DNA of 64,000 nt. Origin: Centroscyllium fabricii (taxonomy: Eukaryota). The stretch is taken from contig JBNRSN020000003.1 in NCBI GenBank assembly GCA_051313645.2, positions 416,826,001 through 416,890,000 on the forward strand. Direction: 5' to 3'. Shown piece by piece: positions 3,504-50,339 of this stretch. The notes beneath the pieces were generated by a model. The model saw only the letters and a program-made list of their open reading frames with translations, ran no database searches and was not told the DNA's origin. A program made the translations under genes and the position numbers. Positions within the stretch are counted from its first letter, which is position 1; every line of letters begins with the position of its first letter.

Positions 3504-4892
3504 GGGGCAAAAACGGGAGGGGGCGATGGGAGAAAGGGGGCGACGGGAGGAGAGAGGGGCGGCGGGAGGAGAGGGGGGGCGCGGCGGGAGGAGAGGGGGG
3601 GCGGCGGGAGGAGAGGGGGGCGGCGGGAGGAGAGGGGGGGCGGCGGGAGGAGAGGGGGGGCGGCGGGAGGAGAGGGGGGGGCGACGGGAGGAGAGGGGGG
3701 GGCGACGGGAGGAGAGGGGGGGGCGACGGGAGGAGAGGGGGGGGCGACGGGAGGAGAGGGGGGGCGACGGGAGGAGAGGGGGGGCGACGGGAGGAGAGGG
3801 GGGGCGACGGGAGGAGAGGGGGGGCGACGGGAGGAGAGGGGGGGCGACGGGAGGAGAGGGGGGGCGACGGGAGGAGAGGGGGGGCGACGGGAGGAGAGGG
3901 GGGGCGACGGGAGGAGAGGGGGGGCGACGGGAGGAGAGGGGGGCGACGGGAGGAGAGGGGGGGCGACGGGAGGAGAGGGGGCGACGGGAGGAGAGGGGGC
4001 GACGGGAGGAGAGGGGGCGACGGGAGGAGAGGGGGCGACGGGAGGAGAGGGGGCGACGGGAGGAGGGGGGGCGACGGGAGGAGAGGGGGGGCGACGGGAG
4101 GAGAGGGGGGGCGACGGGAGGAGAGGGGGGGCGACGGGAGGAGAGGGGGGGCGACGGGAGGAGAGGGGGGGCGACGGGAGGAGAGGGGGGGCGACGGGAG
4201 GAGAGGGGGGGCGACGGGAGGAGAGGGGGGGCGACGGGAGGAGAGGGGGGGCGACGGGAGGAGAGGGGGGGCGACGGGAGGAGAGGGGGGGCGACGGGAG
4301 GAGAGGGGGGCGACGGGAGGAGAGGGGGGGCGACGGGAGGAGAGGGGGGGCGACGGGAGGAGAGGGGGGCGACGGGAGGAGAGGGGGGCGACGGGAGGAG
4401 AGGGGGGGCGACGGGAGGAGAGGGGGGGCGACGGGAGGAGAGGGGGGGCGACGGGAGGAGAGGGGGGGCGACGGGAGGAGAGGGGGGCGACGGGAGGAGA
4501 GGGGGGGCGACGGGAGGAGAGGGGGGGCGACGGGAGGAGAGGGGGGGCGACGGGAGGAGAGGGGGGGCGACGGGAGGAGAGGGGGGGCGACGGGAGGAGA
4601 GGGGGGGCGACGGGAGGAGAGGGGGGGCGACGGGAGGAGAGGGGGGGCGACGGGAGGAGAGGGGGGGCGACGGGAGGAGAGGGGGGGCGACGGGAGGGGG
4701 AGACGGGAGGGGGCGACGGGAGGGGGCGACGGGAGGGGGAGGGGGCGACGGGAGGGGGCGACGGGAGGGGGGAGGGGGCGACGGGAGGGGGGAGGGGGCG
4801 ACGGGAGGGGGGAGGGGGCGACGGGAGGGGGGAGGGGGCGACGGGAGGGGGGAGGGGGCGACGGGAGGGGGGGGGGGAAATGAGGGTGACGG
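3504..4892 (+). repeat. G-rich ~20-bp minisatellite (GGGGGGGCGACGGGAGGAGA)n
   Basis: About 1.4 kb of near-identical units with G-run length varying 5-8; explains the long P/S/R and G/R/E ORFs. Confidence 0.97.
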
Positions 4893-9160: not shown

Positions 9161-9673
9161 CAGGTTGAGCACCGTTAATCCGTTACCCGAAAAACCGGCA
9201 ACTTCGAACGTCCGGCAATAATTTCCCTGACTGCCCTGCGCATGCGCAAAATAGCCACCGCGATCGATGCTTCGGCGAATGATCTGCGCATGTGCCGCCA
9301 AACGGCGAGCGCATGCACTGATCATCCACAATGGCCAAGCCCTCCCCGAGCCTGGCCGCTGCGAGTCTCCCCGAGCCTGGCCGCTGCGAGTCTCCCCGAG
9401 CCTGGCCGCTGCGAGCCTCCCCGAGCCGGGCCGCTGCGAGCCTCCCCGAGCCGGGCCGCTACGAGCCTCCCCAAGCCGCTGCGAGCCTCCCCGAAGCTGG
9501 TCTCTCCGGACGATAAGCGCATGCGCAGACCACTCAAAATGGCCGGCGACCTTTCGCGGCGGCCATTTTGAATGGTCTGCGCATGCGCTTGCCGAAGCTT
9601 CAATCGTTCGGGATTTTCACTTTCCTGGCATGGGCCTGGTTCCGCCCGTGCCGGATTAATGGTGCTCAACCTG
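9161..9673. mobile_element. Tigger/pogo-like MITE copy 4 (same subfamily as copy 2, about 6 copies of the 25-bp unit)
   Basis: TA|CAGGTTGAGCACCGTTAATCC ... GGATTAATGGTGCTCAACCTG|TA; arms colinear with 1781-2443. Confidence 0.9.
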
Positions 9674-14399: not shown

Positions 14400-15741
14400 G
14401 AATAAATGACCACCTAATTTGCTTGTGTTGGTGTTGATTTGAGGCAGGAATGTTAGCCAGGTGAACTCAAAGATGGGAGGGAGGGTGATGAATGAGGAGG
14501 ACATTAAAAACCTGCAAACGGACATAGATAGGCTAAGTGAGTGGGCAGAGATTTGGCAGATGGAGTATAATACTGGAAAGTGTGAAGTTATGCACTTTGG
14601 CAGGAAAAATAATAGAGCAGGTTATTATCTAAATGGAAAGGAACTGGAAAGTACTTCAGTGCAAAGGGATCTGGGGGTCCTGGTGCAGGAAACACAAAAA
14701 GTTAATATGCAGGTGCAGCAGGTGGTCAGGAAGGCCAACGGAATGTTGGCTTTTATTGCTAAGGGGATTGAGGATAAAAGCAGGGAGGTCTTGCTGCAGT
14801 TGTGCAGGGTATTGGTGAGACCACACCTGGAGTATTGCGTGCAGTTCTGGTATCCCTATTTAAGAAAGGACATACTTGCTCTCGAGGCAGTGCAAAGAAG
14901 GTTCACTAGGTTAATTCCGGGGATGAGGGGGCTAACATATGACGAGAGGCTGAGTAGATTGGGCCTCTACTCATTGGAGTTCAGAAGAATGAGAGGCGAT
15001 CTTATTGAAACATAGAAGATTGTGAGAGGGCTTGATCGGGTGGATGCGGTGAGGATGTTCCCAATGGTGGGTGAAACTAGGACTAGGGGGCATAATCTTA
15101 AAATAAGGGGCTGCCATTTCAAAACTGAGATGAGGAGAAACTTCTTCACTCAGAGGGTGGTGGGGCTGTGGAATTTGCTGCCCAAGAGAGCTGTGGAAGC
15201 TACTACATTGAATAAATTTAAAACAGAGATAGACAGTTTCCTGGAAGTAAAGGAAATTAGGGGTTACGGTGAGCGGGCAGGTAAGTGGACATGAGGCTAG
15301 GTTCAGATCGGTCATGTGATCTCCTGGACCAGTTTTCGATCGCCTAGATGGGTCAGAGAGGAATTTCCCATATTTTTTCTCCCAAATTGGCCACTGTTTT
15401 TTAAAATCTGGTTTTTCGCCTCTCCCGGGTGATCACATGGGTTTGGGCGGGATGGAGAGTAAAAATTAAATTGAGGTTAGGATCAGATCAGCCATGATCT
15501 TGTTAAAAAGGCGGAGCAGGCTCGAGGGGCCAATTGGCCTACTCCTGCTCCTATTTCTTATGTTCTTATGTAACTCCCTGGTTTTTTTACATCCACCCGA
15601 GCAGGCAGACAGGACCTGCTCATATGTATAAGCTCACATATGAAGCGTCAGCTTCGACTGTATGCTCCAGTCCATGGTGAGGCTTGAACCCACAACCTTC
15701 CGCCTCAACGAGGAGTGGTAACAACAGAGCCAAACTGACAC
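14400..15741 (-). mobile_element. Deu-SINE (SacSINE1-like) split by a CR1 insertion (SINE parts ~14400-14468 and ~15572-15741)
   Basis: tRNA-like head in reverse (GGCTTGAACCCACAACCTTC...GAGCCAAACTGACAC) and Deu-domain-like text either side of the CR1. Confidence 0.6.
14469..15571 (+). mobile_element. 5'-truncated CR1 LINE (RT C-terminal region plus 3' UTR)
   Basis: ...WQMEYNTGKC...RPHLEYCVQFW...RRMRGDLIET, internal stop, (TTCTTATG)n tail; AACTC repeated at both ends. Confidence 0.95.
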
Positions 15742-34935: not shown

Positions 34936-35603
34936 TTAGTCGAGTCTACTAAGCGGTACCTTATCGAAGGCCTTTTGAAAGTCTGTGTATAGTACAGCCA
35001 CTGCATTACCCTTGTCTACTCTTTCTGTTTCTTCTTCAAAGAATTCAATAAGGTTGGTCAAGCATGATCTTCCCTTTTGAAATCCATGCTGACTATTCTC
35101 AATTATATTTTCGGTTTCTAATAGTTTTTCTATTACATCTTTGAGTAAAGATTCCAAATCGTTCCTGCCACTGACGTGAAGTCAACTGGTCTATAGTTCC
35201 CTAGATTTGTTCCATCTCCATTTTTGAACGTAGGAATAACATTAGTTGTCTGCCAGACCTCTGGCATTATTCCCTTTTCTATTGAATGCTTATACACACA
35301 TTAGTGCTACCTCTTCCTTAGTTTCTTCAGTATGCAAATGAGTAAATGTACAATGATAAGAATTATAATTTTTTTTTCCACAAGTGAAATAAACTGGAAA
35401 ATGTGCCACTAATGGTGCATTATTTAAAATTTGGACAGTTTAGAATAGTTTTGGTGCAATATGGAGTAACATGATAAGGCGTAGCCGGTAAGTATATCTA
35501 TATCTATATCTTTACCTGTATAACTATATATATACTTGTTATAATATAGTAAAGATATAGTAGAGACAGAGTAGTCCAAGTCTACTAGGGATTTAAGAGA
35601 AAA

Positions 35604-36560
35604 ATGGGAGACATAGTGCAGGCCGTCGCAGTCATATGCTCCACCTGCAGCATGTGGGAATTCGGGGACCCAGACGGGGCCCCTGGTGAACACGTGTGCA
35701 GGAGATGCGTCTATCTGCAGCTCTTAGCCGACCGCTTAACGGTGCTAGAGCGGCAGATGGAGTCATTGTGGGGCGTGGGCAACGATGAGCGGGTCGTGGA
35801 TAGCACGTTTGAGAGAGTGGTCACACCAAAGACTAGAATAGACCAGTTAGAAGGAAAATGGTTGACCACCAAGAAGAGTGCCAGAGTGAGGAAGGAAGTG
35901 CAGGGAACCCCTGTGGTCGTCCCCCTGGCAAACAAGTATACCGCTTTGGATACTGTGGAGGGGGACGACCTACCAGGGGAGGGCAGCAGCAGCCTACTTC
36001 CTGGCACTAGGGGTGCTGGGGCTGCCCAGAATGGGAGGGAAACTAGTGTGCCAGCAGTAGTAATAGGGGATTCAATTGTAAGGGGCACAGAGTGGCGGTT
36101 CTGCGGCCGCAGACGTGACACCAGGATGGTTACTTGCCTCCCTGGTGCCAGGGTCCGGGATGTCACGGATCGGCTGCAGGACATCTTGAGGGGGGAAGGG
36201 GACCAGGTAGAAGTTGCGGTCCACATTGGCACTAACGACATAGGAAAAAAGGGGGTCGAGGTCCTGCAAAGAGAATTTAGGGAGCTAGGTAAGAAGCTAA
36301 AAAGCAGGACCCCAAAGGTTGTAATCTCTGGATTACTCCCAGTGCCACGAGCTAGTGAGTATAAGAACCGTAAGATAGAGCAGCTTAATTCGTGGCTAAG
36401 AAGTTGGTGTAGGGGGGAGGGTTTCAGCTTTTTGGATAATTGGTCCCGCTTCTGTGGAAAGTGGAACCTATACATGCCCGACGGATTGCACCTGAACCGG
36501 AAGGGGACCAATATCCTTGCGGGAAGGTTTGCTAGCCGGGTTGGGGTGGGTTTAAACTAA
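35604..36560 (+). CDS. CR1 ORF1: N-terminal CxxC..CxxC zinc finger/coiled coil plus SGNH esterase domain
   Basis: CSTC...CRRC, VIGDSIVR, PGA, HIGTND and DGLHLN motifs; 318 aa. Confidence 0.93.
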   Translation: MGDIVQAVAVICSTCSMWEFGDPDGAPGEHVCRRCVYLQLLADRLTVLERQMESLWGVGNDERVVDSTFERVVTPKTRIDQLEGKWLTTKKSARVRKEVQGTPVVVPLANKYTALDTVEGDDLPGEGSSSLLPGTRGAGAAQNGRETSVPAVVIGDSIVRGTEWRFCGRRRDTRMVTCLPGARVRDVTDRLQDILRGEGDQVEVAVHIGTNDIGKKGVEVLQREFRELGKKLKSRTPKVVISGLLPVPRASEYKNRKIEQLNSWLRSWCRGEGFSFLDNWSRFCGKWNLYMPDGLHLNRKGTNILAGRFASRVGVGLN

Positions 36561-36595
36561 TTTGGCAGGGGGAGGGGACCCAGAGTGACGGTATA

Positions 36596-39476
36596 ATGGA
36601 TAGGGGAACACAACCAAATAAAGGAAAGCAGACTAGACAGCAAAACAAGGTAGTTTTAGGACAGAGAATGAAAGGTATATACTTTAACGCAAGAAGTCTG
36701 ACTAACAAGGTGGATGAGTTAAAGGTATTGGTTGACTCATGGGAATATGATATAGTAGCTATCACGGAGACGTGGCTGAAAGAGGGGCAAGAATGGCAGC
36801 TAAATATTCCGGGGTATAGAATTTTCAGGCGAGACAGAGACGAGGGAAAAAGGGGAGGGGGGGTAGCAATACTGATTAAGGAGTCAATCACAGCCATTAG
36901 GCGGGTCGACCTAATGGACGATTCCTCAAACGAGGCACTATGGGTGGAGGTAAAAAATAAAAAGGGGGGCGGCACCTTACTGGGAGTATATTATAGACCA
37001 CCAAACAGTAAAGGGGAGGTAGAGGATAAGATATGTGAACAAATCACGAAGATAAGTGAAAATAATAAAGTAACAATATTAGGGGACTTTAATTTCCCCA
37101 ATATCAACTGGGAGAATCAAAGTGTGAGGGGCACGGAAGGTTCAGCATTCTTACAATGCAGCCAAGAAAATTTTTTGAAACAATATGTTGGGTCACCTAC
37201 AAGGGGGGGGGCGGTACTAGACCTAATACTTGGGAACGAGGACGGGCAGATAGAGGAGGTAACAGTGGGGGAGCACTTCGGGGATAGCGACCACAATTCA
37301 GTTAGTTTCAAAATTGTAATGGAGAAAGATAAAAATGGACCAGGGGTAAAAATACTAAACTGGGGGAAGGCGGATTTCAATAAAATTAGGAACGATGTAA
37401 CCGCAGTAGATTGGGGCCATCTCCTCAGAGGAAGATCTGCATCAGAGCAGTGGGAGGCCTTCAGAGGGGAAGTCGGGAAGATACAGGAGGAACATGTTCC
37501 TGCAAAAATTAAGGGTGGGGGAGACAAACAAAGGGAACCTTGGATGTCTAGGGATATATGTAAATTAATGAAGAAAAAAAGGGGGGCTTTTAATGAATAT
37601 AAACGGCTAAAAACTGAGGAGGCACTAGGGGAGTATAAGAAATATAGGGGTGATTTAAAGAAGGAGATAAGAAAAGCCAAGAGAGGTCATGAGATTACAA
37701 TGGCCGGTAAAATCAAGGATAACCCTAAGGCATTTTATAGTTATATAAAAAACAAAAGGATCACGAGGGAAAGAGTGGGGCCCATTAAGGACGATAGCGG
37801 AAAGCTGTGCGTCGAGCCTGAGGAGGTGGGGGAGGTACTAAATGAATTCTTCTCTTCAGTATTCACAAGAGAGAGGGACGATACCGACATCGAAACCGGA
37901 CAGAGTGTAGGGGGGGTAATTGAGGATATTACCATTACAAGGGAAGAAGTTCTAGAAATCTTGGGAGGCTTAAAGGTGGACAAATCACCAGGGCCGGACG
38001 CAATGTTCCCCAGGCTGCTGTTCGAGGCCAGGGGGGAGCTTGCGGGCCCCCTGTCTCAAATCTTCAGGACCTCTCTCGCGTCAGGGGATGTACCTGAGGA
38101 CTGGAGAACGGCTAATGTAGTACCCCTGTTTAAAAAGGGTAGTAGGGACAAACCGGGTAACTATAGGCCAATTAGTCTTACATCTGTAGTAGGGAAAGTA
38201 ATGGAAAAAATTCTGAGGGACAAAATCAGTTCGCATTTGGACAAACAAGGTCTAATAAGAGACAGTCAGCATGGCTTCGTCAAAGGTAAGTCGTGCCTGA
38301 CTAATCTGTTGGAATTCTTTGAGGAGGTAACAAAGAGGGTGGATGAAGGGAGTACAGTGGACGTAGTGTATATGGACTTTAGCAAAGCTTTTGATAAAGT
38401 CCCACATAGGAGACTAATAACAAAGGTTAGAGCGCACGGGATACAGGGCAACTTGGCACAGTGGATCGAAAATTGGCTGGGGGATAGGAGACAAAGGGTA
38501 ATGGTAGAGGGCTGCTTCTGTGACTGGAAACCAGTAACCAGTGGTGTCCCCCAAGGATCGGTTTTGGGACCCTTACTGTTTCTAGTATACATCAACGATT
38601 TGGATATGGGAGTAGGGGGTATGATCAGCAAATTCGCTGATGATACGAAAATCGGAAGGGTGGTAAACAACGATGAGGATAGTAAGGGGCTTCAGGAGGA
38701 TATAGATATAATGGTTAATTGGGCAGAAAAATGGCAAATGGAGTTCAACCCAGAGAAATGCGAGGTCATTCAATTCGGTAGACCAAATGGGGTAAGGGAA
38801 TATACCATGAACAACAAAACGTTAAGTAGGACCGAGGAACAGAGGGACCTGGGGGTACAGGTGCACAGCTCCCTGAAGGTTGCTGGACACGTTAACAAGG
38901 TGGTTAAGAAGGCATACGGAATTCTCGCCTTTATTAACCAGGGCATAGTATACAAAAGTAGGGAGGTAATGTTAAACTTGTATAACACACTGGTGAGACC
39001 TCAGCTGGAGTACTGTGTGCAGTTCTGGTCACCGCACTTCAGGAAGGATGTGGTTGCCCTGGAAAGGGTGCAGAGAAGGTTTACCAGGATGATACCTGGT
39101 CTGGGGGACTTATGCTACGAAGAAAGGCTGGACAGGCTGGAGTTGTTTGCCTTGGAGAAGAGAAGGTGGAGGGGTGACATGATTGAGGTGTACAAGATCA
39201 TGAGGGGACACGATAGGGTAGACAAAGGGGCATTGTTTCCCCTGGTGGGAGAGTCAAGTACTAGGGGACATAGATTCAAGATCAGGGGGGGGGGGGAGGT
39301 TTAGGGGGGAGGTAAGGAGAAATTTCTTTACCCAGAGGGTGGTGGAAGTCTGGAACTCCCTGCCTGTGAGGGTGGTGGAGGCAGGAACCATCACAACATT
39401 TAAAAAATACTTGGATCAGCACATGAAGGACCATAACATACAGGGTTATGGGCCAGGTGCGGGCAATTGGGGTTAG
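36596..39476 (+). CDS. CR1 ORF2: APE endonuclease plus reverse transcriptase (frameshift at the G12 run, 39285-39296)
   Basis: YFNARSL, ITETWL, GVYYRPP, GDFNFP, SDHN; QHGF, DFSKAFDKV, GVPQGSVLGP, FADD; C-terminus RRNFFTQRVVEVWNSLP continues in another frame to TAG at 39474-39476. Confidence 0.93.
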
Positions 39477-42400
39477 TACAGTGAGGAGTTTTTCTGGGCC
39501 GGTGCGGACTGGATGGGCCGAATGGCCCTTATCCGCACTGTAAAATTTCTATGATTCTATGATTCTATGATGCAGACCTCGCCCCACAATTCTTCACACA
39601 AGAATTGCCTGCTGTCAGCCTTGCCATCTGGAGCAGTATCGCGATACCCTGTACCTGCCCAAGACGAGATGGGAATATCAGAGCTGCAATTCACGCCAAG
39701 CTGCTGCTGTTTATCTCTTGGTTGGTGAACCAAGAGAAGCATTAGAAGTGCGTTGAGAGTAGATAACCTGCCCATCTTCTCACGCAAGCTAAAGATGCAT
39801 GCAAAAATCAAATTGTGGAAGGGAATATCTTTTTAATTAAGGGAATTTTTAGTGCTAACTTTTGAAAGATTATATTTAATTAAACAATTTGTTAAATAGC
39901 ACTATAATTGCTGGTTCCCACAGAAATGGCGTTTCAGCACAGGTATTGGCTCTCCTTTGTTCACGCATCATTAGTCCAATCAACAATATGCAGCGTGGCA
40001 AGGTGTGCAACATGTGGTACCAAAACTAATATTTTCACATTTGTAATGTACTTATTTACTTAATCCAAAAATCACTGTAGGAAATATAAATACAGGTGTA
40101 TAAAAATATATATTTTTTGATATACACACAAGTTGTTGCCTGCAGCAATATTCCACAGTCAGTTGATGAATGTTTTTTTTAATGTAGAAGATGACAGTGA
40201 AGTTGGAGAAAAGATGTCATTCACTCCGCAGAGCCACCTGTGGCCAGTCTGCAGCTACATTCTAGCAGATGATGCAGCAAAATGTAATATTGACCGAGCA
40301 ACTTACAATAGTCAATGCTGACGGAAGAGCGTGACAAAAATCGTGACTACCAGAAGAAAGGTTTGTGGACAGAAAGTGCACACGTGTTCAAGCTTTAAAA
40401 ACAAAATCACAAGAACAGTATGCAGCCAGTAACAGCACTGACATCCTCCCGCCATTCCTCCATGACAACCACAGACACTAGTTGTTCACATCCAAAGTTC
40501 ATACACTTTTTTAATTTTAAAAATGCCTTTAGATTGGAGAGAATTATTCCAACAGTCTATTGGTAGATTCGTAAAACTTTCATAACAAAAACATTACAAG
40601 TCTTCCAGTAGTCTTCCAAACAAATTCAAGTAGTGAGATACTGATAAATATGCAGCAACCTATATTGATTGCAAGTTAAAGATGAAAATACATACAAGTT
40701 TGCTGTTAAGTCTGCATTGGATGGCAATTCTTACACCCTCCAAGTATAGGACAGCCAATTATAAACTAGTGCTATTTATTTTGCCCCCGAAAATGGATCA
40801 GGAGCTGGGAGTGCAGTGGATTGGTATACTAACAGGCTGCGCCACCAAGTGGCAGAATACAAGTTCAGTCCCACATGATTCTTGACTGGCGTCACTCCCA
40901 ATCTCAACTTTTCCATCTGAGAGAGCGATTTCTCGGAGGAGAGAATCAAGAGGCCTATTCAATTTGCTGAGTACCTTCTAAGTGCTGATAAAACACCACT
41001 GGCAGACTGCAAGCTGCATGACATCAGGCCCTCTCTCAATTACAGAACAGTGCAACACCATGGAAGGGCCGAAACAGAAGTTAGAAATGCTACTTTGGGA
41101 AAAGCATGCTAATTAATATAATTCGAAAAAATATATATATTTTAAAATTAAACATATACTGAGCAAAATCTAACAATTTCTGAAGGACCAACATGCTGTC
41201 CAATTTGAGAACATACTCCCACAAAGTTTTTCCAATTTCAAAAATAAAGTGTCTAGCAAGGAACTGATTGTATTAACTATAATTGTTTGTACAGAAAATT
41301 GAAAACTACAGTCCACTATTAATCTGAAAGGGTTTTTCAGATCAACGATCTGAAGCATTTAACTTCCAGTTTCACTATATGGCAAACCCCGCTTTGCATC
41401 TGCCTTTATTGGGCATTGTTGCCAGATGGAAAATATTAAACAAAAAGGATTGCAACTAAATCAATCTGCTACAGCACAGTGCCAAAAGGCCCCATGCTAA
41501 CTACAAGCAGATTTGCAGGCAGGTCTCGTTCTGTTACGACCTGGGTTCTGGCACATCCTTTGCCCCATCTAACAGCAGGAGGGCAGGGGCTGGCTGAGAG
41601 CTGCTACTGTGCCAAACAGACTGTGGAGTGCTTACTGCTTGAGTGCTTCTACAGAAAGAGTGTGAATCCAAGAGTCCATTGTAAACAACTACTGGTACTT
41701 CCTGGCTGCTACTGTGCCATACATTTTGGGTGCTAAACATTTCAAGAAAAATGGCGCATTTTAATCCTTCAAAAAGAAATTTGAAACTCAAAGTGACATT
41801 TTACGAGTGAAGCCTTTATAAAAAAAGACACACTATTGTGTGCTCGTCATAAATCACTCCTCAAAACGTGTACTTGTTAACCCAATCATAATTCTAAAAA
41901 GCACCAGCCTAAGTAATATGAACAAACAATATCTAGAATTAAAGGAATATACTTAAAAGGCACTATAAATTATATATTTTTTCAATTAATCCCGTAAGAA
42001 AAAAATTAAGTTAAAATTTGTACTTTTACTTGAAAACAGCTGGAAGATGCCAGTCTACAGTACACACAAGACTAGACAATTCCTTTTTAAACTCATTGCA
42101 TATGTAATATTAAATAAAATATATCAAATTCATTTTTTGAAAGAGTTCCTTTCTACAATTGTCATATCTACTGGGGTGATGCCACAATGCTGCAACAGAC
42201 TTTGGAAGATCCTCCAACCAAAAACAAGCTAATTACGATTTGAAAACATTTTTAATTGATTTGTTGTCATGCCACTGGCTATATAATTAGATACATTTTA
42301 CATAAATGGAATTCCCTTCGTGTTTACATTTGAGGACTCTTGATTTCCACCCTTTAAGGCCCTGTCACCATCACATCCTGGAGGGTGAACAAGTCTGGGC

Positions 42401-46077: not shown

Positions 46078-47870
46078 ACATAAGAACATAAGAAATAGGA
46101 GCAGGAGTAGGCCAATCGGCCCCTCGAGCCTGCTCCGCCATTCAATAAGATCATGGCTGATCTGATCCTAACCTCAATTTTATTTTTACTCTCCACCCCG
46201 CCCAAACCAATGTAATCACCTGGGAGAGGTGAAAAACCAGACATGGCCGATCTCAACTTAGCCTCACGTCCACTTACCAGCCCGTTCACCATAACCCCTA
46301 ATTCCCTTTAATTCCAGGAAACTGTCTATCTCAGTTTTAAATTTATTCAACGTAGTAGCTTCTACAGCTCTCTGGGGCAGCAAATTCCACAGCCGCACCA
46401 CCCTCTGAGTAAAGAAGTTCCCCCTCATCTCAGTTTTAAAATGGGAGCCCTTTATTTTAAGATTATGCCCCCTAGTCCTAGTCTCACTCACCATTGGGAA
46501 CATCCTCACCGCATCCACCCGATCAAGCCCTCTCACAATCTTATATATTTCAATAAGATCGCCTCTCATTCTTCTGAACTCCAATGAGTAGAGGCCCAAT
46601 CCACTCAGCCTCTCGTCATATGTTAGCCCCCTCATCCCCGGAACTAACCTAGTGAATCTTCTCTGCACTGCCTCGAGAGCAAGTATGTCCTTTCTTAAAT
46701 AGGGACACCAGAACTGCACGCAGTATTCCAGGTGTGGTCTCACCAATACCCTGTACAACTGCAACAAGACCTCCCTGCTTTTATACTCAATCCCCTTAGC
46801 AATAAAAGCCAACATTCCGTTGGCCTTCCTTACCACCTGCTGCACCTGCATATTAACTTTCTGTGTCCCCTGCACCAGGACCCCCAGATCCCTTTGCACT
46901 GAAGTACTTTCCAGTTCCTTTCCATTTAGATAATAACTCGCTCTATTATTTTTCCTGCCAAAGTGCATAACTTCACATTTTCCAGTATTATACTCCATCT
47001 GCCAAATCTCTGCCCACTCACTTAGCCTATCTATGTCCTTTTGCAGGTTTTTAATGTCCTCCTCATTCATCACCCTCCCTCCCATTTTTGTGTCATCCGC
47101 AAACTTTGATATGTTGCACTTGGTCCCTTCTTCCAAATCGTTAATATAGATTGTAAAGAGTTGGGGTCCCAGCACCGACCCTTGCGGAACACCACTAGTG
47201 ACTGACTGCCAGTCTGAGAACGAACCATTTATCCCAACTCTCTGTTTTCTGTTAGAAAGCCAATCCTTCACCCATGCCAGCATATTACCCCCAACCCCGT
47301 GATTTTTTATCTTGAGTAATAATCTTCTGTGGGGCACCTTGTCAAATGCCTTTTGGAAGTCCAAATACACCACATCCACTGGTTCCCCTTTATCCACCCT
47401 ATATGTTATGTCCTCAAAAAACTCTAGCAAATTTGTCAAACATGACTTCCCCTTTGTAAAACCATGCTGACTTTGTCCTATTAAATGGTGTTTATCCAAA
47501 TGCCCTGATACTGTTTCCTTAATAATAGATTCTAACATTTTCCCAACCACAGATGTTAGGCTAACTGGTCTATAATTTCCAGCCTTCTGTCTATCACCCT
47601 TTTTAAATAAGGGCGTTACGTTAGCAGTTTTCCAATCTGCCGGAACCTTTGCCGAGTCCAGTGAGTTTTGAAAAATTATTACTAACGCATCCACAATCCC
47701 TACCGCCACTTCCTTCAAGACCCTAGGATGTAAGCCATCAGGTCCAGGGGATTTATCCTCCTTAAGTCCCATAATTTTCCCAAGTACCACCTCCTTAGTG
47801 ACTTTAAACGTAATTAGCTCCTCCCCCCCTAGAGCCACCTGTTTATCCAATAATGGGATATTTTGAGTGT
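46078..47870 (-). mobile_element. 5'-truncated young CR1 LINE with an uninterrupted 528-aa RT-region ORF (46264-47850)
   Basis: KSPGPDG...QHGF...GVPQGSVLGP...FADDTK...; same subfamily as 14469-15571. Confidence 0.95.
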
Positions 47871-50339
47871 ATCTTGGGCATATTCCCTTGCATTAGGTCC
47901 TGTTCAAAATCTTTAAAACCACCCACTGTTCTTGCAAAATTGCTAATGATTTGTGAAGTAAATCCTTGTTTGGTTTTATCACAACATTTCAATCCAAAAG
48001 TTTTAAAAACTGAAATGATTCCACTGGTATGATGTGCGTCAAAAGCTCTTACTTACAGGACTTATCAAAACAATGCAATTCTAATGGCAAGAACACCCAG
48101 TTGGTTTAATAAATGTTGCTGAATACCCTGCTGTATTATGATATTCTTTCTAATTCTGTCCTTTAACACAACAGCTTATTTCCAGAATTCAAACTAGGCT
48201 TCATAAAGGTGACATTTACCTCATAATTCACATTCTTCCGTCAAGGTCAATATTTTCATTATGATAAATTACCAATTACTGAAATTATTTTCTAACTCAT
48301 GAAAACTTTTAATGATTAAACTTAAAAGTGTGCATTGCAGGGCCATACCATTGTGAAACAAAGGGGAAAACTCAATCACACTGTTCTTCAAAATTCTTTC
48401 ACTGACTCAGTTCTAGGACTGAATGCCAACTTCAGTGCTGCAGTTGTGGTGTTCTTGCACATCATTAACGACATGCAAATATTCATGGTGCAGAATTTCT
48501 TCACTCCAGAGCTTCAAAGACATTTCATATGGCAGATACTGAGCAATGACATTTTGCTAATACCCAATTATAATAAAATGCATAATTACTCCATCATACA
48601 GATTAGCAACAAGCATAAGTACAGTAATAACTAGAGAGGTGCAGACACCATTCAACAGTACGATGATATACACTCTAAGTGACCAAAATAAACCCTTCAA
48701 GTCAAGACACAAAATGTGCTCAGAATGCAGTAAATTTAATGCATTATATTTTCAAATTGGTAAAACAACACAGTCCTTAATATTATAATTTCCGGTATGT
48801 TCTGTTCAGTTTGACACAGTTGAATCTCTCTTTAGGTGGCCATTAATTGATTCTACGGCTTTTATGTCACTAAGTTCCAGCTTCATACAAAGTTTCCATC
48901 TCAAAAGCTTTTAATCAAACCAAAATATAGCTTTGTAGAATTCTAAAGTTTTCTTCCTTCAGTAAAACCCTTAACATTTCCAATTTTAGCAAAGTGGTTT
49001 CCTTTTCTTAAAAGTGTGGCCAGAAATCTCTAGCACTGCATCGGTTTAAATGTTGAGGGACACAACAATGGCTGAAGAGTTAATGTTGTGCTGTCTATAT
49101 GCAAACAGTGGCCTGGGTCCCTAAAGGGCCTTGTTTGTCCCCACGTTTCACTGATTTGCCAGTTGGCAATCTTAAGCCAGGAAACTGTCAATTTCAATTC
49201 AGCTTACGGCTACATACTCCCATTAAAGAAGTCTTGCTGGTTAAGGGGCAGCCTCTGTTTCCAAAGCATGGGAACGAGAGCTCTACATTCCTTAGATTTC
49301 AGCTGGCAACTTACACTGACTAGAATTTTCAAGGAGCAATGAATGAGCTTAACAAAGGCGTTCTGTGGCCAGTTTCTGGCTGTCATCCATGTCAACAGTT
49401 TCTTGGGTCAGAGGTCACACTAACTACATTTATTCCCAGCAGACCCTGTTCCAAACACAGACTGCAATAAGTACAAATTCAGAATTTTTCAGTAATCCCC
49501 CCCGAGATATCCCTGATCTTCCACATGTTTCTGCTCAATTAAAAAAAAATCTCACTTTGCACCCTCTGCTCTCGGAGAAAGAGGCCCAGTGGAAAAGAAA
49601 ACATAGGATAGCACACAGACAAAAACAAAAAGAGCATTCCAAATAAAGAGAGTGACACTAAGTGTAACATATTCTGCTAACCAGATTAACACTTCCACTG
49701 AATACTGTACATCAGATGTGTCGCAGATGGAGGTACCTACTGTTCCTACATCTTTTACAATATGATCCTGTCCTACCAACATCCAAAGAAAATATAGAAG
49801 CCTTCTCAATTCCTGACAGCAGTTACCTGTACTAGTAAAAGAACTGCTTAAGGGAATTCACTGGCTCTTATACACAGAAAGCAGAAAAGTGAACTAATTT
49901 ATAAAATTTCCTCTCAATTATCAAAGCCAACCTTTGGTACATTTTTCATTCAGTTGTTTACATATAACATTCCGTTTGGAGTACGTATGCCAACTATTGT
50001 GTATTTGTTAATTGAAAACAATCACAAGACACCAGATGCTTAAATCGAGCACTGGCAAGAGCACGCCGAATGTTGATAAATGCTATTTAAAGAGCCCCAA
50101 ACTCCCAATCTGTTAATATATAAATGATACTAAATCAACACATACCACAGCTAACCCCTCATGCACACCCCTCTAATTACAGACATCAGAATTTTTAGAA
50201 TTCCAGAACTATGGACAATGCAACTCTTAACTTAAAAAATTAAAATTAAATATGGTGTCAAAAATATTTAAAATATTGAACATTTGTATTTCCTGATAGA
50301 AATTTGCATTTCTTTACCAACTAAGATATTTCGGTAATA

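Follow-up and report, generated by a model that had tools for sequence, protein, structure and literature searches.

A conserved slippery heptamer abutting the ORF1 stop codon suggests programmed −1 ribosomal frameshifting in esterase-type CR1 retrotransposons

The 64,000-nucleotide stretch analysed here (the window: Centroscyllium fabricii, assembly GCA_051313645.2, contig JBNRSN020000003.1, positions 416,826,001 to 416,890,000 of the forward strand) contains a near-intact CR1-type long interspersed nuclear element (LINE) of the shark type on its + strand, extending from the first ATG of open reading frame 1 (ORF1) at 35604 to an octamer tail at 39547–39571. ORF1 encodes an esterase, ORF2 lies in the −1 frame relative to it, and the last codons of ORF1 form a slippery heptamer, U_UUA_AAC, that directly precedes the stop. 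A first-pass annotation of this DNA had proposed that CR1 may form an ORF1-ORF2 fusion by programmed frameshifting at this site. Comparison with other CR1 elements, mostly by way of their proteins, supports that proposal, and we consider it probable (about 0.72) that the junction of esterase-type CR1 elements uses programmed −1 ribosomal frameshifting to yield such a fusion. The junction feature is real and conserved, is most likely a −1 frameshift site of vertebrate CR1 LINEs, and is apparently unreported in the papers searched.

Results

ORF1 ends GGT TTA AAC TAA, and the −1 frame across the junction reads FKLIWQGEGTQSDGIM. The features around the junction, in window coordinates, are:

35604–36560, + strand: CR1 ORF1, 318 amino acids (reading frame spanning 35589–36560)
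36536–39304, + strand: ORF2 frame, −1 relative to ORF1, with matches to PF03372 and PF00078
36548–36554, + strand: second phased heptamer, G_GGU_UUA, overlapping the main one from one codon upstream; possible tandem slip site
36551–36557, + strand: slippery heptamer U_UUA_AAC (TTTAAAC), in phase with ORF1
36558–36560, + strand: ORF1 stop codon UAA, abutting the 3′ end of the heptamer
36564–36577, + strand: tract rich in G that encodes GxG in the −1 frame; candidate stimulator
36596–36598, + strand: first in-frame ORF2 AUG, in strong context (A at −3, G at +4)

The position and phase of U_UUA_AAC, directly before the stop, proved to be as first annotated, and ORF2 is indeed open in the −1 frame from the heptamer to the ATG at 36596 (the open frame covers 36536–39304); the G_GGU_UUA at 36548 had been overlooked. 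The earlier interpretation of the −1 frame as FKLxxxG stands only in part: the motif recurs in other families, but FK would be absent from the product under tandem slippage, because ORF1 would be read through Leu-Asn with decoding resumed at the Leu codon 36557–36559. U_UUA_AAC is among the most shift-prone heptamers on mammalian ribosomes (Atkins et al., PMC5009743). Phased canonical heptamers occur at 3 of the 318 ORF1 codon positions, two of them overlapping at the very end of ORF1. For this single copy that amounts to ∼1% per position; the chief argument for a signal is conservation.

Conservation was read from protein ends; the rows compared are related to one another, and the p-values given below assume independence. 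Leu-Asn (LN) was the C-terminal end in 44 of 64 ORF1 homologs from the first homolog search. Of 207 proteins collected, 144 with a near-complete esterase at the C-terminus were kept and 63 were dropped as fragments or fusions; among those kept, 93 ended LN, 9 ended Gly-Asn (GN), and 109 overall ended in Asn. In an esterase tree, built as a quick version only, the clade of the window's element (Shimodaira–Hasegawa-like approximate likelihood ratio test, SH-aLRT, 97) ended LN in 76 of 82 rows, the six remaining ends being HSCC, EKMA, QPGS, RTIF, NLNG, and ETIN. The LN-ending genera (Pristiophorus, Hemitrygon, Leucoraja, Mobula, Hypanus, Mustelus, Pristis, Stegostoma, Narcine, Hyla, Xenopus, Leptobrachium, Chrysemys, Zootoca, Macrochelys, Ranitomeya, Varanus, Lepidochelys, and Hirundo) span sharks, rays, frogs, turtles, lizards, and one bird (swallow). 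The first-pass annotation had suggested that the heptamer and its phase be compared across families; at the level of proteins, Leu-Asn-stop is kept across jawed-vertebrate CR1 ORF1s. A seven-row clade with ZfL2-1-like tails, none of which (0/7) ends in Asn, is a useful negative control. Five unnamed esterase ORF1s (P0113, P0125, P0168, P0187, and P0191) end FFH, FFN, FFR, or GFR, possibly reflecting a U-run slip site one codon ahead of the stop.

The junction signal looks conserved at the nucleotide level, judging by the terminal LN, GN, and Lys-Asn (KN) residues, by a bias in how the preceding codon could end, and by cases where the two frames can be solved together. L317 and N318 are at least 90% conserved (alignment A1); in a structure model the last of the ORF1 helices stops at residue 312 (of 318), which leaves the tail outside the predicted fold, with a predicted local distance difference test (pLDDT) score of 67 for the tail block. 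LN lies 26 residues past the DGxHL motif in 71 rows, 32 in 12, and 39 in 3, and because this distance varies, LN tracks the stop and not the structure. U_UUA_AAC requires a U-ending codon before Leu, and Q, E, K, M, and W are therefore disallowed there. These five residues preceded LN in only 1 of 94 rows (the 93 LN homologs plus the window) but made up 153 of the 846 residues between positions −4 and −12 (p = 4e-7). The bias persisted after thinning to <60% identity (0/22 vs 54/198, p = 0.0014), and other thinnings gave 0/53 (<80%), 0/35 (<70%), and 0/16 (<50%, p = 0.005). At <60% identity, the ratio of D/H/N/C to their look-alikes E/Q/K/W before LN was 7:0, with a background of 13:51. Of the 48 ways to encode x-L-N, only 2 yield a canonical heptamer, and LN-stop combined with FKL in the −1 frame forces T_TTA_AA[C/T]. 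In 19 of the 22 homologs ending GLN, the preceding residue permits a G-ending codon, so these could have G_GGU_UUA as well.

A separate clade ends Gln-Gly-Asn. The residue before GN is Q in 8 of its 9 rows and A in the other, which would fit the requirement of G_GGA_AAC, and one further row ends SKN, compatible with A_AAA_AAC. Together with U_UUA_AAC, these are three of the four heptamers named most shift-prone by Atkins et al. (PMC5009743). Among 93 distinct N-ending tails, L, G, or K precedes the N in 87; for internal xN, the count for L, G, K, or P is 397 of 1629.

Some database proteins read the −1 frame over the junction directly. The window reads FKLIWQGEG, a Hypanus protein (P0031) FKLNLQGAG, one from the ibis Theristicus (P0218) FKLDLKGEG, six Ranitomeya models VKLEEEGTG, and three 998-amino-acid proteins (P0356, P0358, and P0360) FKLICQGGG. 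Thus F/VKL followed by GxG, whose conservation had been put forward as a check, recurs at fixed spacing in four other families; the pattern search required GxG, and an open listing gave the same ray, ibis, and frog cases. The linker from F/VKL to the NARS motif ranges between 45 and 110 codons across families, and in these four the −1 frame is open over the 47–110 codons concerned, an openness subject to selection bias. The Ranitomeya pair solves to G_TTA_AA[C/T], so that the heptamer can begin with a base other than U; equine arteritis virus is listed with G_UU(A) (PMC5009743).

The ORF2 AUG, which had been set against this motif in the same check, is not conserved. Counted from F/VKL, the first Met is codon 15 in the window; for Hypanus the figure is 18, for Ranitomeya 25 or 49, and for the ibis 93. 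In P0356, P0358, and P0360, whose uninterrupted ORF2 is 57% identical to that of the window, it comes at codon 166, inside the endonuclease and past both NARS (codon 47) and ITETW (codon 72), so that one intact family has no AUG before its endonuclease motifs. In a profile search NARS and ITETW align with N14 and E43 of the L1 endonuclease, which we take to be active-site residues. Because the first Met lies beyond these motifs, AUG-dependent reinitiation cannot yield a whole endonuclease in such families. The −1 reading of the three proteins fits ORF1 P0028 with 0 mismatches over 31 codons, the next best having 2. For an Anolis cluster of 514 members, 15 models are listed: 6 begin with MGNKQ immediately past the Asn, 8 are fragments, and a single one has a Met upstream.

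Sharks, reptiles, and birds have CR1 as their most common jumping gene, and an octamer 3′ tail in place of poly(A) is typical of it. ORF1 encodes, in order, an N-terminal C-x2-C-x16-C-x2-C zinc finger, a long helix, a disordered linker, and an SGNH esterase (PF13472, E = 5e-15; ZfL2-1 ORF1 esterase 4c1b, E = 5e-40), followed by G-L-N-stop; its closest named matches are from sharks and rays, at 50–59% identity, which points to a cartilaginous fish as the probable host. The other features of the element are:

36536–39304, + strand: ORF2 layout, with a 40-codon linker, an APE endonuclease at ∼36683–37294, and a reverse transcriptase at ∼38141–38830
39285–39296, + strand: G12 run with a one-base indel, a mutation or a homopolymer assembly error
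39547–39571, + strand: 3′ terminal octamer repeat (TTCTATGA), 3.1 copies

The indel in the G12 run, the sole lesion noticed in the element, puts the last ∼60 ORF2 codons into another frame that ends at TAG 39474–39476. A single-sequence search of the endonuclease against PDB gave no match, whereas a profile search did give matches. The zinc finger and SGNH esterase of ORF1, the APE and reverse transcriptase of ORF2, and the octamer tail make this an esterase-type CR1 LINE by sequence. It probably belongs to CR1 and not L2; the tree built was of the esterase. The same ORF1 (zinc finger/leucine zipper plus esterase) and ORF2 (APE plus reverse transcriptase) have been described for esterase-type vertebrate CR1 elements (ORF1 type IVB, CR1 subgroup 7; Metcalfe and Casane 2014, PMC4120745). 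A target-site duplication and the 5′ end of the element were looked for and not found. Just 5′ of ORF1 lies a splice-donor-like GGTAAGT (35487–35493), followed by an AT-rich stretch of TATA repeats (35499–35548).

The window has no other ORF1, its remaining CR1 pieces being ORF2 3′ fragments. Two 5′-truncated ORF2 pieces, at 46264–47892 (− strand) and 14443–15111 (+ strand), resemble each other, belong to another family, and are ∼60% identical to ORF2 of the main element; the former is open for 542 codons. Elsewhere in the window there is a G-rich 20-bp tandem array (3536–4877; 67 copies, 95% matches), and one 25-bp tandem unit occurs at both 1971–2267 and 9341–9497 inside a GCGCATGCGC-rich repeat with further apparent occurrences at 643, 6202, 33006, and 51046.

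In scans of public contigs, no relative was found among viral contigs and no match among plasmids and phages; 10 loci came from metagenome contigs and 3 from genome contigs, at 25–36% identity, none with an ORF2 match; and seven junction-pattern matches (L014–L020) had no tblastn match to ORF1 or ORF2. One locus (L004, 3–1742) has an esterase ORF1, one stop, and then an endonuclease-like frame in the same frame, a layout that by sequence resembles stop-codon readthrough rather than frameshifting. Longer ORF1-ORF2 fusion proteins were sought among 7,999 candidates and none was found, which is weak evidence. Shark-type CR1 ORF1 and ORF2 also appear under the names Pseudomonas aeruginosa and Carnobacterium maltaromaticum (P0007 and P0217, on 3–4 kb contigs), likely through contamination.

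Four read runs were compared over 36150–36900, and among the 40 of 129 variant places listed, indels occurred only at 36244 and 36299, neither of them at the junction. One divergent contig agrees with the window as far as 36572 and differs beyond it. In run X1, eleven joints, mostly in single contigs, skip 69–205 bases within the ORF1 esterase (36244–36551) and represent deleted copies or assembly artefacts; ten of them run from 36337–36363 to 36476–36551.

Discussion

From the phased heptamer, the open −1 frame, and their conservation, we infer that ribosomes slip at the CR1 junction and that ORF2 functions as part of the fusion. Most ribosomes would terminate at the UAA and release an ORF1 protein (ORF1p) of ∼318 amino acids, while a minority would slip back one base, from UUA (P site) and AAC (A site) to UUU/AAA, bypass the stop, and continue through the linker, endonuclease, and reverse transcriptase. 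The predicted product is a gag-pol-like fusion of ∼1,290 amino acids (318 + ∼972), made at a low fixed ratio to ORF1p. As to what makes the ribosome pause, we can only speculate that it would be the abutting stop together with a single-stranded G tract, acting as a weak G-quadruplex or through a bound protein, and not a hairpin. A wider proposal would be that esterase-type CR1 elements across jawed vertebrates, and their G_GGA_AAC relatives, make endonuclease and reverse transcriptase only as a fusion, with the slip driven by the abutting stop and a G tract ∼10 nt downstream (G-quadruplex or protein-bound) and by neither hairpin nor pseudoknot, and that this signal has been kept since sharks and bony vertebrates split ∼450 million years ago; we put this forward tentatively and regard it as doubtful in its entirety. 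Natural use of a G-quadruplex for frameshifting was unknown as of 2016 (PMC5009743).

Several observations weigh against frameshifting at this junction, among them those on the stimulator. The G-rich tract that the first-pass annotation placed ∼6 nt downstream does exist: TGGCAGGGGGAGGGG starts 5 nt past the heptamer, G runs lie at 36564–65, 36568–72, and 36574–77, the GGGGG core being 10 nt away from the heptamer, and the prediction of a two-tier G-quadruplex covers 36564–36575, 6 nt past the heptamer. The tract is nevertheless unexceptional in the element, where an equal G score is found in 4.5% of 25-nt segments and at 21 separate peaks. Four folds, which covered local hairpins and had pseudoknots outside their scope, gave no stable stem-loop 3′ of the site (z = 0.24, 0.48, 1.12, and 0.59), and a local 3′ hairpin was rejected as the stimulator on these values (0.24–1.12). 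An Rfam scan of the window gave no match. Pairing of 36558–36590 with 35900–35935, the best site in the element (−33 kcal/mol), was not supported either: among shuffled queries 5 of 40 matched it, and among control queries 2 of 43. Folds, Rfam, and long-range pairing thus confirmed no stimulatory structure, in agreement with the first reading of the sequence. According to the frameshifting review, a minority of stimulators lie 12–15 nt downstream, acting either through structure or, together with trans-acting factors, as linear RNA (PMC5009743). The ORF1 segment at 35900–35935 encodes V-P-L-A-N-K-Y, and a peptide resembling L-x-N-(K/R)-(Y/F) recurs in many ORF1s.

The comparative data have their own points on the same side. 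Ends other than LN or GN are found in 42 of the 144 esterase ORF1s, and protein ends are blind to U vs C at heptamer position 1 and to AAC vs AAU unless the −1 frame is seen. The rows are akin, thinning reduces this kinship only partly, and the GN rows are confined to one region of the tree. Gene models covering the −1 frame carry a selection bias towards openness. In one of them, Leptobrachium P0413, the reading is FKLVQGGG and the glycines come one codon earlier. The public contig scans yielded no junction DNA from other classes. In the reads, no variant fell in 36539–36588 among the 40 of 129 places listed, but equally long gaps occur elsewhere, and the gap at the junction deserves little weight. 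Finally, the case is built on sequences. We do not file the junction as a canonical −1 frameshift cassette, because the 3′ stem-loop test failed and the product is only predicted.

Termination followed by reinitiation, as in L1 and SART1, is unlikely in our estimation. Ribosomes would then restart at AUG 36596, or elsewhere without an AUG, and UUUAAAC-UAR with its G tract would be a reinitiation signal merely slippery in appearance. The window copy does have a strong-context AUG 35 nt past the stop and a second ORF2 AUG at 36668, six codons ahead of NARS, which also counts against frameshifting, and a classical stimulator was not found in the four folds. Moreover, SART1 uses stop-start coupling (PMC3894237), and mammalian L1 ORF2 is thought to initiate without need of its AUG (PMC5009743), so that even a family lacking the AUG may reinitiate. 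However, there is no UAAUG overlap at the CR1 junction, where the AUG lies 35 nt from the stop, and families differ in their first Met, which comes anywhere between 15 and 166 codons past FKL. UGGGA, a motif like the termination upstream ribosome-binding site (TURBS) that lies upstream of the stop in termination-reinitiation, is absent from 36400–36600. Nor does reinitiation predict that U_UUA_AAC and G_GGA_AAC should replace each other in step with the preceding codon, and after a long ORF1 it has been deemed highly improbable for most non-LTR (long terminal repeat) elements (PMC3894237).

A combination of the two routes, in which frameshifting is ancestral and general while in families like that of the window the AUG also, or mainly, gives free ORF2 protein, strikes us as improbable. 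The window copy carries both signals and Hypanus P0031 has a Met 18 codons past FKL, but with AUG position unconserved these are more simply seen as linker methionines.

It is very improbable that the constraint lies in the protein, with ORF1p needing a C-terminal Leu-Asn for binding or stability and the heptamer an inherited by-product of one ancestor. The conservation data do come mostly from protein sequences, and a free C-terminal motif need not fold. Such a need would nonetheless leave unexplained both the avoidance of Q, E, K, M, and W before LN where D, H, N, and C are used and the Gln before GN; in addition, the rare UUA Leu codon is forced wherever both frames are visible, and the absence of N-ending tails in the ZfL2-1-like clade (0/7) indicates that the esterase does not need N. 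We give least credence of all to a spliced RNA in which the donor-like GGTAAGT at 35487 is joined to an AG near the junction (CAG 36565–36567, after a CTAAT branch-like motif), removing ORF1: the motifs are present and automatic gene models from birds in several cases run into the ORF2 linker near this point, but such models are predictions, there is no pyrimidine tract, the putative branch A lies only ∼6 nt from the AG, families lacking an AUG would not be helped, and the heptamer pattern would go unexplained.

If frameshifting does operate, the junction would work in the manner of retroviral and nidoviral −1 frameshifting. The −1 frameshift sites of infectious bronchitis virus (IBV) and other coronaviruses (U_UUA_AAC), those with G_GGA_AAC or A_AAA_AAC, and that of equine arteritis virus (G_UUA) share the heptamers, the phase, and a polymerase in the −1 frame (PMC5009743). 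Unlike at these sites, the CR1 stop abuts the heptamer, no 3′ stem-loop was found, and the conserved 3′ feature is a short G tract ∼10 nt away. An abutting stop is shared with the gag-pol of Rous sarcoma virus. For ZfL2-1, ORF2 was reportedly proposed to be made through stop-codon suppression and not coupling. The earlier statement that studied LINEs use reinitiation or coupling was too sharp, as the Dictyostelium elements TRE5-A and TRE3-A, likewise APE-type LINEs but different from CR1 in host and ORF1, are said to need a −1 frameshift for ORF2 (PMC5911963). Mammalian L1 and silkworm SART1 are likewise bicistronic LINE RNAs with low ORF2 output, but they give a separate ORF2 protein, through AUG-independent initiation after a spacer and through UAAUG coupling, respectively, whereas a fusion is predicted for CR1 (PMC5009743, PMC3894237). 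In Penelope-like elements, a different class of retroelement, ORF1 may be split by a frameshift with a pseudoknot (PMC8557442), and some Neptune elements carry an esterase (PMC5408684).

The title of one early CR1 paper, that of Haas in 1997, refers to two closely spaced ORFs. Frameshifting was unreported for CR1 in a full-text literature search; the early papers (Haas 1997, Kajikawa 1997, Kapitonov and Jurka 2003) lie outside that search and may remark on the junction. The main texts of PMC4120745, Schneider 2013 (PMC3905857), and a 2026 chordate survey (bioRxiv 2026.01.13.699120) contain no match to frameshift or slip and, in the passages covered, leave ORF2 translation unaddressed, the word counts for slip, overlap, fusion, and translat in the last of these all being 0, and CR1 has a count of 0 in the available text of the frameshifting review (PMC5009743). 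Of the supplements searched for junction motifs, that of PMC2817409 gave matches only in the 3′ part of ORF2 (its file 2 lying outside the search), and those of PMC4120745, PMC4992247, and PMC2734521 gave none.

How the ORF2 of LINEs is translated is regarded as an open and important question (PMC3894237). Should the CR1 junction work as proposed, the working enzyme would be an esterase-endonuclease-reverse transcriptase fusion, tying a membrane-binding esterase to the reverse transcriptase in cis. Annotations that begin ORF2 at its first AUG would then lose endonuclease residues, as in the Anolis models, and cell assays of CR1 would need the native junction. The junction would also represent a very short frameshift signal without obvious structure.

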